IMG/VR virus record: IMGVR_UViG_2695420540_000010
Length of the DNA: 11,545 nt
Source of the DNA: a virus
Lineage: Duplodnaviria > Heunggongvirae > Uroviricota > Caudoviricetes
Reading direction: 5' to 3' (one strand)
Part shown: piece after piece, positions 2,219 to 11,545 of the stretch
Layout: each line of letters opens with the position of its first letter
How positions within the stretch are numbered: position 1 is the stretch's first letter
Notes under the pieces: model-generated
Told to the model about the DNA's origin: nothing
What the model saw: only the letters and a program-made list of their open reading frames with translations
Database searches by the model: none
Program-made: the position numbers and the translations under genes

Positions 2219-2405
2219 TGGAAGGATAGCGGTCATGTGATGCCGGTTTCCCGGTAACTCAGCACCGGTATCTGAGTCAACGTTTTCTCTACTGGGTCAT
2301 TTCCGATACGCCCTGCCTGCTGACAGGCTTTCATCACATCTGAAAATATAGCACCCTGACTGATACTGTAGTACCTAAGGTTCCAGAAACTGTGATGTAT
2401 CCGGC

Positions 2406-2430
2406 ACAGAAAAGCCCCTCCGGAGAGGGC
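2406..2430 (-). terminator. Candidate intrinsic terminator on the minus strand (hairpin at the start of repeat copy C)
   Basis: Near-palindrome gcccctccggagagggc followed on the minus strand by cttttctgtg. Confidence 0.35.
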
Positions 2431-2635
2431 TGGAGAGTGGCGCTATGTGCCATTGCATGATGCCGGGTGCCTCCCGGTGAATTCAGTACCAGCACCTGAA
2501 TCCGCGATTATCCCATATACCTACTCGCTGATTGCCCCTCCGCACAGGGGGATTCACCATGCCAGTTTCTTTTAACAAACTCCCCGCAAAACAGACAACT
2601 GTCAACCGTCTGAATTGTGAGACATTTAAAAAAAA
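2414..2635. repeat. Copy C of the ~220-bp repeat, immediately downstream (minus sense) of tRNA-Arg(UCU)
   Basis: Near-identical to copy A (791..1010) by direct comparison. Confidence 0.85.
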
Positions 2636-2841: not shown

Positions 2842-2917
2842 TGGTGGCCCTTGCTGGATTTGAACCAGCGACCTGGCGATTATGAGTCGCTCGCTCTCAC
2901 CACTGAGCTAAAGGGCC
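2842..2917 (-). tRNA. ileZ: tRNA with anticodon CAU, most likely tRNA-Ile2 (lysidine type) rather than tRNA-Met
   Basis: 76-nt cloverleaf GGCCCTTTAGCTCAGTGGTGAGAGCGAGCGACTCATAATCGCCAGGTCGCTGGTTCAAATCCAGCAAGGGCCACCA. Closely resembles the E. coli ileX/ileY tRNA-Ile(CAU) sequence as I recall it. Confidence 0.8.
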
Positions 2918-10348: not shown

Positions 10349-10504
10349 TTACTCCTCAGGTTCGTAAGCTGTGAAGACAGCGACCTCCGTCTGGCCGGTT
10401 CGAATTCGTACCTCGCAGAGGTCTTTCCTCGTTACCAGTGCCGTCACTATGACGGTTAAACAGATGACGATCAGGGCGATTAACATCGCCTTTTGCTGCT
10501 TCAT
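10349..10504 (-). CDS. hokD: Hok/Gef-family type I toxin (HokD/RelF-like, 51 aa); the in-frame 70-aa extension to 10561 is a Mok-like frame
   Basis: MKQQKAMLIALIVICLTVIVTALVTRKDLCEVRIRTGQTEVAVFTAYEPEE matches the Hok family, and HokD as I recall it. AAGGAG lies 9 nt upstream. An upstream in-frame ATG at 10561 has its own GAGG. Confidence 0.85.
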   Translation of the reverse strand: MKQQKAMLIALIVICLTVIVTALVTRKDLCEVRIRTGQTEVAVFTAYEPEE

Positions 10505-10795
10505 AGCCTGCTTCTCCTTGCCTTTCGGCACGTAAGAGGCTAACCTAGATTTGCCGTTCATAGATTGAGCCTCAGATTAATGTTAAGCGTCTTGCCGGAC
10601 GCGTAATGTTAACTGGGGCTTTTCTCTATCTGCCTTTTGGTGTTCATGCCTGAGACAGATAGCCTCAAGCACCCGCTGCAATTCTACTTAACTCTCCTTT
10701 TCCCGCAAACCGTTTTTATCCCCAGCGGCAAATCGAATACACCACCAGCGCCACCGCCATCGCAATTCCTACCGTTGTTAATGCTTCAGGCCAGG

Positions 10796-11140
10796 TCATC
10801 GTAAAATATCCTCCACGCTTATCAGTCCGTTCCGCTCCAGATAACTCATCGCCTTATCCGGTAATTTGCAGTCTGGCTTCGCTTTCCTCAGTTGCCAGGT
10901 TAACTGCTTTACCAGCATGGTTAACTCATCGACCAGACGCTGATATCCCACTGGTTTGTATTCATGCAATTTACCGGCTGGCTCTGCTGCCAGCGATACC
11001 AGTGCGATTTCCAGAACAGCAATATCCATCTTATATGTGCGGATGATGTCATGGTCGATTGTGCCCGGTATGCACAGTCTCTGTGCTTCAATAGTCTCCT
11101 CTGCGTGAGCTATTAACTGCTCTCTGGTAAAAGTCGTCAT
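10796..11140 (-). CDS. Hypothetical 114-aa protein, paralogous in its N-terminal part to the upstream 55-aa ORF
   Basis: ATG overlaps the upstream stop (ATGA). Shares MTT.T.E and IAL.SL.AEP....EY with the 55-aa ORF. Confidence 0.55.
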
Positions 11141-11304
11141 GCCGTAGCCCCTTCTTGATATTTTTCAAACCAGAACACAACCGGCTCTGCTTCCAGCGAT
11201 GCCAGCGCAATCCGTGCCAGTTCCATTTGTTCACCACGGGTAAGCCCGTTTTCAAGCGGGTTTTTAATGAACAATTCAATACGTTCTTTGGTAATAGTGG
11301 TCAT
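11137..11304 (-). CDS. Hypothetical 55-aa protein (below the ORF-track length cutoff)
   Basis: Translated by hand: [61 protein letters not shown] lies 7 nt upstream of the ATG. Stop overlaps the next gene's start. Confidence 0.55.
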
Positions 11305-11314
11305 GTGTTACTCC

Positions 11315-11545
11315 TTAACCCGCAGTGCTTTCAACTGATGAGGGGAACAAAATCTTTTCATCAAACCCTGCATTCATATCATGAACAGCAACACACCAAT
11401 CCATCGACGAACGATTATCAAGAGCCTCCATGATTTCATCCATGCGGCGTAGGTCATACAGGTAAATGCTTTTATCGCCAATGGTGTAAAAGCCAATTTT
11501 TTTCGGTGATGGATGAGGTGTACTGGCAATAGCGGACACTACCAT
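11315..11545 (-). CDS. Hypothetical 76-aa protein whose start codon is the last three bases of the window
   Basis: ATG to TAA open frame, followed 10 nt later by the next gene with a strong SD. No family recognised. Confidence 0.5.
   Translation of the reverse strand: MVVSAIASTPHPSPKKIGFYTIGDKSIYLYDLRRMDEIMEALDNRSSMDWCVAVHDMNAGFDEKILFPSSVESTAG

Follow-up and report, generated by a model that had tools for sequence, protein, structure and literature searches.

The window, that is, the whole stretch of 11,545 nucleotides analysed here, carries near its end a block of small genes on the minus strand, followed by a hok/mok/sok toxin-antitoxin locus. The features of this region are as follows.

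11315..11545, minus strand: 3′ part of an 87-aa gene (WP_000224227, phrog_1714), truncated by the end of the window
11317..11315, minus strand: TAA stop of the 87-aa gene, overlapping the Shine-Dalgarno sequence (SD) of the 55-aa ORF
11311..11316, minus strand: SD AAGGAG, with a 6-nt spacer to the ATG of the 55-aa ORF
11304..11137, minus strand: 55-aa ORF (WP_000207997.1, 'Eaa protein'), a chimera of a head module and an HNH tail
11179..11304, minus strand: head module of the 55-aa ORF, codons 1-42
11183..11211, minus strand: direct repeat copy 1, ATTGCGCTGGCATCGCTGGAAGCAGAGCC, in the 55-aa ORF, the crossover substrate
11137..11178, minus strand: tail and stop of the 55-aa ORF, the same as the 3′ end of the 121-aa HNH gene WP_001229296
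11154..11148, minus strand: SD-like GAAGGGG inside the 55-aa tail
11140-11137, minus strand: ATGA overlap of the 55-aa and 114-aa ORFs, also carried by the 55-aa tail segment
11140..10796, minus strand: 114-aa ORF (WP_000206826.1, 'Prophage protein'), consisting of a head variant, a short linker and a C-terminal module
10976..11140, minus strand: head module of the 114-aa ORF, codons 1-55, a predicted helical hairpin
10980..11008, minus strand: direct repeat copy 2, ATCGCACTGGTATCGCTGGCAGCAGAGCC, in the 114-aa ORF
10799..10954, minus strand: C-terminal module of the 114-aa protein, residues 63-114, also present in longer Eaa/DUF551-type proteins
10814..10809, minus strand: SD GGAGGA of the 27-aa ORF
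10716..10799, minus strand: 27-aa hydrophobic ORF, with an ATGA overlap with the 114-aa stop at 10799-10796
10349..10674, minus strand: hok/mok/sok toxin-antitoxin locus, downstream context outside the block
10674..10499, minus strand: Rfam sok
10561..10349, minus strand: mok/hok

A first-pass annotation had described the 55-aa and 114-aa ORFs as a translationally coupled pair of paralogous small proteins upstream of hok. Their coordinates (11304..11137 and 11140..10796, both on the minus strand) and their ATGA overlap were correct. The 55-aa gene, which had been called invisible, does fall under the 60-aa cut-off, but it is annotated in RefSeq as WP_000207997.1 and named in UniRef. Its ribosome binding site is not the strongest in the region, as had been claimed, because the anti-SD duplex energy of −8.7 kcal/mol is good but is surpassed by those of the 27-aa ORF (−9.3 kcal/mol) and DUF968 (−10.6 kcal/mol); the values for hok and the 114-aa ORF were −8.5 and −7.1 kcal/mol, respectively. 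At both ATGA junctions the SD is located within the upstream ORF (GAAGGGG at the 55/114 and GGAGGA at the 114/27 junction). We infer that the 87-, 55-, 114- and 27-aa genes share a single early-right (nin-type) transcript and, judging from the sequence, that they are probably translated via stop/start coupling.

The 27-aa ORF is the final gene of the mosaic block and is separated from the sok/hok leader by a 42-nt gap. It was intact in 72 of 80 IMG/VR loci, its variants comprised five synonymous and six non-synonymous ones, and in P0131 and P0149 it is fused in-frame to the 114-aa protein. On the other side of the pair, the 40 nt that precede the N-terminal module in the window were the same in 54 of the 80 loci. 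The total of a promoter and terminator scan of the window was not above the shuffle expectation. On the opposite strand, the ORFs spanning the 55-/114-aa pair lacked family support. We also rejected a plus-strand ORF at 10637..10804: despite a match to phrog_7511, it runs antisense to both the 27-aa ORF and the hok leader, and the codon-position pattern of its variants speaks against coding.

Qin/Rac-type lambdoid prophages of E. coli and phage vB_EcoS-689R5 match the region at 99-100% identity. In these relatives the region is flanked by replication genes and Ea22-like genes on one side and by DUF968-RusA-Q on the other, and the setting is the nin-type early-right region. Both ORFs have RefSeq entries (WP_000207997.1 and WP_000206826.1) under the name 'hypothetical protein', whereas UniRef uses 'Eaa protein' for the 55-aa and 'Prophage protein' for the 114-aa sequence and the record of phage vB_EcoS-689R5 names the 55-aa ORF 'EaA protein'. 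The exact 55-aa and 114-aa sequences each occur on at least 1000 contigs. Both proteins are already catalogued members of the mosaic accessory genes of lambdoid prophages.

The relationship between the two proteins had been proposed on the basis of a shared MTTxTxE start (MTTITKE in the 55-aa and MTTFTRE in the 114-aa protein), an IALxSLxAEP block present in both, and a DNA match at 25 of 29 bases, and all three observations could be reproduced. The matching segments, 11211..11183 and 11008..10980, are in equal codon phase. Given the small size of both proteins and their high content of Ala, Leu and Glu, the similarity might in principle be a matter of chance or composition, with the 55-aa ORF being no gene. 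However, the in-phase match of 25/29 exceeds everything obtained in 200 shuffles, in which the best 29-mer match ranged from 15 to 20, and both proteins have entries in RefSeq as well as in UniRef. We attach a negligible probability to a chance origin.

The homology of the shared motifs was confirmed by BLASTP, shared PHROG profiles, an alignment of 12 variants and a hidden Markov model (HMM) of the head. The N-terminal parts of the 55-aa and 114-aa proteins share 33% identity (BLASTP, E = 1e-5), and the N-termini of both match PHROG profiles 60, 660, 3323 and 5117. The matches of the 55-aa protein included phrog_3323 (1.3e-19) and phrog_60 (4.3e-18), and those of the 114-aa N-terminal part phrog_5117 (3.3e-9, residues 1-83) and phrog_60 (1.5e-7, residues 1-71). 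The match of the 114-aa protein to phrog_660 (8.2e-43) has its best stretch on the C-terminal module, which matches phrog_660, 924 and 8171. The head HMM found exactly these two starts, from residue 1 and nowhere else in the window, with values of 2.5e-20 (55-aa) and 4.5e-20 (114-aa) that are partly circular because both sequences were in the seed alignment.

According to the alignment of the 12 variants, the head module comprises approximately 42-55 residues, begins with M-T-T-x-T-K/R-E, continues through a variable middle and ends in the IALxSLxAEP block. A search of 1.84 billion proteins with the head HMM yielded 1703 cluster representatives at E <= 1e-3 and 309 at E <= 1e-10, with clusters counted at 50% identity. 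Among the best 150 matches, the head was at residue 1 in almost all, and the proteins ranged from 53 to 442 aa. Homologues match the 55-aa protein at more than 90% identity in residues 1-42 and diverge completely afterwards, continuing into DUF551, DUF550 (dATP/dGTP pyrophosphohydrolase) or unnamed sequences. A comparison across the 80 loci located this sharp break after EAEPV (codon 42); there, proteins of 53-411 aa begin with this head, and past EAEPV they continue in at least 14 unrelated ways. Conversely, the C-terminal part of the 114-aa protein is constant behind at least seven head variants, and the 55-type head and the 114-type C-terminal module form the opposite ends of two 379-aa proteins. 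Among 104 head-bearing representatives, the partner domains were DUF551 in 30, dATP/dGTP pyrophosphohydrolase in two, DUF4752 in one and Ead_Ea22 in none.

Selection acts on the head as a protein. Across 34 head alleles, pS was 0.23 and pN 0.019, which gives a pN/pS of 0.083, and frequent synonymous variants were spread through the codons of the IALxSLxAEP block. To judge from these sequence variants, the head is a protein-level unit under strong purifying selection, and the low pN/pS together with the synonymous changes inside the block speaks against a purely DNA-level element. Both ORFs are neighbouring representatives of a large family of mosaic accessory proteins encoded in the early region of lambdoid prophages. 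The 114-aa protein is a minimal member of this family, composed of a head variant and the conserved C-terminal helical module and devoid of the middle modules found in longer relatives.

The closest named relatives are the P22-type Eaa, DUF551 (PF04448) and DUF550 (PF04447) proteins of Enterobacteriaceae, whose N-termini are more than 90% identical to residues 1-42 of the 55-aa protein. The exact 55-aa sequence and its cluster bear the names 'Eaa protein' and 'DUF551 domain-containing protein, partial', and some DUF551 proteins (P0218 and the 379-aa proteins) end in the C-terminal module of the 114-aa protein. Unlike the DUF551 and DUF550 proteins, the 55-aa protein is head-only and the 114-aa protein head-plus-tail, and neither of these domains is present. 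For DUF551 (PF04448; the ...PVTPDGWISCSERMP...HWMPLPEPP region), no Pfam match with E <= 1 was found in either protein. Relatives of YfdS of CPS-53, which is another studied relative in kind (PMC4776307), are among the DUF551/DUF550-type prophage proteins.

The tail of the 55-aa ORF has a different history from its head. In E. coli W12-1 and phage ArgO145, an identical 114-aa gene is preceded by a gene for a 121-aa HNH endonuclease (WP_001229296, phrog_2118) with the same ATGA overlap. The DNA of this HNH gene is identical to that of the window from approximately 11181 downstream through the 114-aa gene, so that the last 13-14 residues of the endonuclease, as well as the SD and the ATGA junction, are shared with the 55-aa ORF at the DNA level; phrog_2118 also gave a weak match to 55-aa residues 31-54. 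The tail is native to the HNH family, since the alignment with HNH homologues of Acinetobacter, Vibrio, Caulobacter and T4-like phages, down to approximately 40% identity, extends through residues 114-120 of 121. None of the HNH catalytic region (HNH residues 1-106) is present in the 55-aa ORF, and a search for the HNH catalytic motif/zinc-finger region gave no Pfam HNH match in the 55-aa protein; its product can therefore not be a nuclease.

The 55-aa ORF is thus a recombination chimera in which codons 1-42 are the commonest head allele and codons 43-55 the HNH tail, with the join at the EAEPV/SDPV position, at the last 13-14 HNH codons. The RBS of the 114-aa ORF and the ATGA overlap were accordingly inherited from the HNH/114 junction. 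The stop/start overlap on which the claim of coupling was based is real, but because the tail comes from the HNH gene, the ATGA coupling and the SD are inherited and are not a property of a paralogue pair. Likewise, the N-terminal modules are homologous, whereas paralogy does not extend over the whole length, the tails being of different origin. The trailing EY that had been included in the shared block is present in both proteins; its similarity is coincidental because in the 55-aa protein it lies in the foreign HNH tail and is offset by one residue.

At the 80 IMG/VR loci, the ORF upstream of the 114-aa gene was head-only in 61 (57 with the 55-aa form and four with a 61-aa head variant) and an HNH gene in 19. 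The expectation that the 55-aa frame is conserved in related prophages was borne out: it is intact wherever the allele is found, that is, in 57 of the 61 head-bearing upstream loci. The chimeric origin itself nevertheless invites the view that the 55-aa ORF is a functionless scar, an HNH gene decapitated when its 5′ part was swapped for a head module, and we regard this as a real, if somewhat unlikely, alternative. On this account, to which we give the same guarded credence, the frame would be open only through recency and shortness, and any protein made from it would be inactive. The alleles are 98-100% identical, leaving little time for decay; other short head-only ORFs (53, 59, 62, 63 and 64 aa) with unrelated tails resemble truncated longer genes, and frameshifted fusions occur in some assemblies (P0121, P0122 and P0144). 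However, the ORF is intact in nearly all copies, it has retained a canonical SD and start, and three different head variants are followed by this tail (P0110, P0120 and the 61-aa forms). Its pN/pS of 0.23 is below 1, although this value derives from only 17 variants (nine synonymous and eight non-synonymous), and heads located in other genes may have contributed part of the selection signal. Finally, translation of the 55-aa ORF may still matter to the expression of the 114-aa gene. For the chimeric ORF, selective maintenance as a stand-alone gene is thus not proven by these sequence comparisons.

The two in-phase copies of the IALxSLxAEP segment are 203 bp apart and share, within the 25/29 match, an identical core of 8 nt. 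A 101-aa hybrid (P0151) was found on 13 contigs, between the same 87-aa gene and hok. Its gene equals the 55-aa gene over nt 0-111 and, at an offset of 203, the 114-aa gene from nt 104 to the end; it corresponds to the deletion of exactly 203 bp, the crossover lying inside ATCGCTGG. The repeat pair thus acts as a recombination substrate, through which the 55-/114-aa pair has collapsed into the 101-aa hybrid. Related rearrangements were seen elsewhere: in other lineages two heads are fused in one polypeptide (P0241 and P0245), and in the loci L001 and L002 a third head gene is located 716 nt further upstream.

The position of the crossover in the block raises the question of whether the block is primarily a DNA or RNA element, such as a recombination hot-spot, a Chi-like site, a terminator or a regulatory site, with the protein similarity as a by-product. 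This reading could draw on the GCTGG repeats in the block, on the great abundance of true Chi sites in the window and on a weak terminator-like hairpin at 11197..11180 in the consensus scan. However, the latter consists of only five pairs without a real T-run, and the total of the scan was within that of the shuffles. Synonymous positions vary freely among the alleles while the amino acids are kept, and the conservation spans the whole hairpin of the protein, always at residue 1. We consider a primary DNA or RNA element highly improbable. As for Chi in particular, this explanation was rejected: the repeat is not Chi (GCTGGTGG), and the nearest true Chi site is at 10749..10742.

In lambdoid phages, relaxed homologous recombination by Rad52-like phage recombinases generates mosaics of this sort (PMC3945230, PMC2327257). 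In these mosaics, short conserved stretches border the exchanged segments, and the 25/29 repeat is such a border; exchange takes place between co-resident prophages, and diverged substrates are tolerated (PMC3945230, PMC2327257). The 203-bp deletion and the swaps of heads and tails are products like those of relaxed recombination between prophages. Unlike in the described lambdoid mosaics, the border is located here within a coding sequence, at a protein-domain boundary.

The first-pass annotation had placed the pair upstream of hok. Of 79 IMG/VR loci, approximately 52 carried hok downstream of the block and 14-16 parDE, the remainder having other genes, so that the survey of co-occurrence found parDE in the place of hok and no fixed linkage to a neighbouring toxin, with hok/sok, parDE and others alternating. 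Because the boundary of the block is at 10715, directly past the stop of the 27-aa ORF, hok belongs to a separate module; with parDE in its place elsewhere, the position of the pair upstream of hok is incidental. Neither was the pair itself constant. Of 5426 complete E. coli genomes, 563 contained the 114-aa gene and 324 the pair, whereas DNA of the 55-type head occurred in 985, in up to four places per genome. Each partner is often found without the other, and the pair is not obligate.

These data bear on the view that the two proteins form a dedicated system, produced at a fixed ratio by coupling, joined head to head in a heterodimer and possibly connected with hok/sok. The ATGA overlap and the good SDs would fit such a system, association is physically plausible for homologous, hairpin-like heads, and the intact pair in 324 genomes as well as the recurrence of a head-only ORF beside another head gene elsewhere (P0241 and P0245) point in the same direction. 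However, the pair accompanies the 114-aa gene in only 324 of the 563 genomes, the identical 114-aa gene follows an HNH endonuclease with the same ATGA in 19 of the 80 loci, the pair has collapsed into a single hybrid gene in some strains, and parDE or other genes replace hok. No toxin-antitoxin or defence family match was found for the proteins of the block with PADLOC, Pfam and NCBIfam. A structural model of P0121, a natural frameshift fusion of the 55-aa and 114-aa proteins, gave no confident packing of head against head. A dedicated two-protein system is decidedly unlikely in our estimation, and we continue to treat the ORFs as neighbouring members of the mosaic family.

For the 114-aa protein, AlphaFold2 predicted the head as an antiparallel two-helix hairpin (H6-26/H30-51) with block-mean pLDDT values of 81-94 across residues 1-50; next come a disordered linker (residues 56-62) and the helices H64-87, H95-103 and H109-113. 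The P0121 model had a mean pLDDT of 52.5 and a pTM of 0.40, with almost no alignment depth in its first half, MAFFT having put the 55-aa homologues on the second head; within this model, the 55-aa head appeared as the helices H6-19 and H23-38 at low confidence. When the 55-, 114-, 27- and 87-aa proteins were scanned with Pfam, NCBIfam and PADLOC, nothing meaningful was returned, and sequence and profile searches of the PDB gave only chance matches; in one borderline case, helix 64-87 resembled designed antiparallel coiled coils (E = 0.005). A Foldseek search of the 114-aa model against the PDB and BFVD yielded nothing but generic helical hairpins of 45 residues, none of them at E <= 0.001. In the literature on Eaa, DUF551 and Ea22, we found papers on Ea22 and YfdS but no functional study of the head module.

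On the basis of the model, the head hairpin is most likely a dimerisation or docking element that would provide a common partner or oligomeric state for diverse cargo domains. Oligomerisation is deduced here from size and shape: a hairpin of approximately 40 residues is too small to form its own core, the two conserved ends come together where the hairpin is open, and the cargo domains to which it is attached are unrelated. The 55-aa product would accordingly be a free head module, which could cap or compete with other head-bearing proteins or could merely keep ribosomes on the message. A more far-reaching version holds that the head is a common association domain through which the many head-bearing proteins of co-resident prophages (DUF551, dNTP pyrophosphohydrolase, the 114-aa type and others) form mixed oligomers or dock on a shared host or phage target, with free heads tuning these assemblies by capping or competing; we consider this unlikely, but if true, it would amount to a combinatorial protein-interaction system generated by recombination and not yet in any domain database. 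Overall, we think it probable that a mosaic head-module family, a chimeric 55-aa ORF, recombining repeats and a hairpin for association together provide the best explanation of the locus.

The studied protein that most resembles this picture is Ea22 of phage lambda. Ea22 (Ead_Ea22, PF13935) belongs to the mosaic proteins of the exo-xis region (PMC10834534, PMC7093339) and is oligomeric, with interchangeable C-terminal domains that include DUF551 (PMC10834534). The head-bearing proteins are likewise products of early, non-essential and mosaic genes; they combine a short segment at the N-terminus with helical or coiled-coil parts and swappable C-terminal domains, and the Ea22 tetramer may by analogy serve as a model for the proposed role of the head. 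Ea22-like genes are located just upstream in the same prophages. Unlike Ea22, the head module is a different sequence family, and PF13935 matched neither of the two proteins nor any of the 104 head-bearing representatives. The location also differs, Ea22 being encoded between exo and xis and the head genes in the nin-type region, from the replication genes to Q.

A new kind of system is not revealed by these results; the kind, mosaic lambdoid accessory genes, is known. New details are the origin of the 55-aa ORF as a chimera, the hybrid produced by the 203-bp deletion and the extent of a head family that has no domain-database entry. The window illustrates on a small scale how accessory genes of lambdoid prophages are built and rebuilt, as it brings together a boundary motif that also acts as a recombination border, a chimera of head and tail and the deletion product of a tandem repeat. 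There is also an annotation gap, in that an N-terminal module as widespread as this (more than 1,700 clusters at 50% identity) is still without a domain-database model; neither Pfam nor NCBIfam holds one for the head. Fragments of the head module are misnamed 'DUF551, partial', and in the 55-aa cluster these names come from truncated fragments of longer proteins. As a side observation, head-only products like the 55-aa protein arise repeatedly.

Directly after the 114-aa gene lies a short hydrophobic ORF whose stop is the exact end of the mosaic block formed by the HNH-tail (the 3' part of an HNH endonuclease gene), 114-aa and 27-aa genes. This ORF is kept intact in 72 of the 80 related IMG/VR loci that hold the 114-aa gene, carries no annotation in the RefSeq record that we compared, and in some strains is joined in frame with the 114-aa protein (proteins P0131 and P0149). 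Because its variants comprise 5 synonymous and 6 non-synonymous changes, the sequence comparison indicates that the ORF is likely, though not proven, to be coding.

Features at the 27-aa ORF (window coordinates)
10716-10799, minus strand: 27-aa hydrophobic ORF; the start overlaps the 114-aa stop as ATGA; Shine-Dalgarno sequence GGAGGA
10742-10749, minus strand: Chi site within the 27-aa ORF, exact match
10637-10804, plus strand: 55-aa ORF beginning with TTG and running antisense across both the 27-aa ORF and the hok leader

The antisense ORF matches the PHROG phage protein family phrog_7511 at 2e-25. Because variants that are silent in the minus-strand frame hit second codon positions of this ORF, phrog_7511 is probably the product of mis-called ORFs.

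Throughout the 11.5-kb window, exact Chi sites (GCTGGTGG) numbered 12, compared with 0.42 expected from shuffles, with 8 on the minus and 4 on the plus strand. Lambdoid prophages dependent on host RecBCD have been described as similarly enriched in Chi.

The slot directly 3' of the mosaic block is occupied by a toxin-antitoxin module in most prophages, the type of which varies.

Modules in the downstream slot
window, 10349-10674: hok/sok
prophage/phage locus L003, 2234-2796: parD/parE
prophage/phage locus L004, 2366-2877: parD/parE

On the other side, upstream of the 55-aa ORF and just past the window end, a third gene with the head module, the N-terminal part common to the 55-aa and 114-aa ORFs, was observed at a distance of 716 nt from the 55-aa start.

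Third head-module gene in two related loci
L001, 9595-9721, minus strand: annotated as a partial pseudogene
L002, 7280-7720, minus strand: annotated as 'Ea22 protein', 146 aa

In three proteins from Logan/ENA assemblies (P0121, P0122 and P0144), a frameshift near the ATGA overlap joins the 55-aa and 114-aa ORFs; these fusions may be genuine variants or may stem from errors in assembly.

A consensus scan, in which total matches were no higher than in shuffles, returned a terminator-like hairpin within the conserved IALxSLxAEP block, which is weak, with 5 pairs and a poor T-run.

Hairpin in the conserved block
11180-11197, minus strand: GCTGGAAGCAGAGCCGGT + TGTGTTCTGG, at the head/tail junction of the 55-aa ORF

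Elsewhere, at 780-2917 on the minus strand of the window, copies of the sRNA family STnc100 are interspersed with tRNA genes, downstream of the Q-type antiterminator region.

sRNA and tRNA genes (window coordinates)
780-969, 1915-2124 and 2402-2591, minus strand: STnc100, three copies
1669-1742, 2671-2744, 2761-2834 and 2845-2917, minus strand: four tRNA genes
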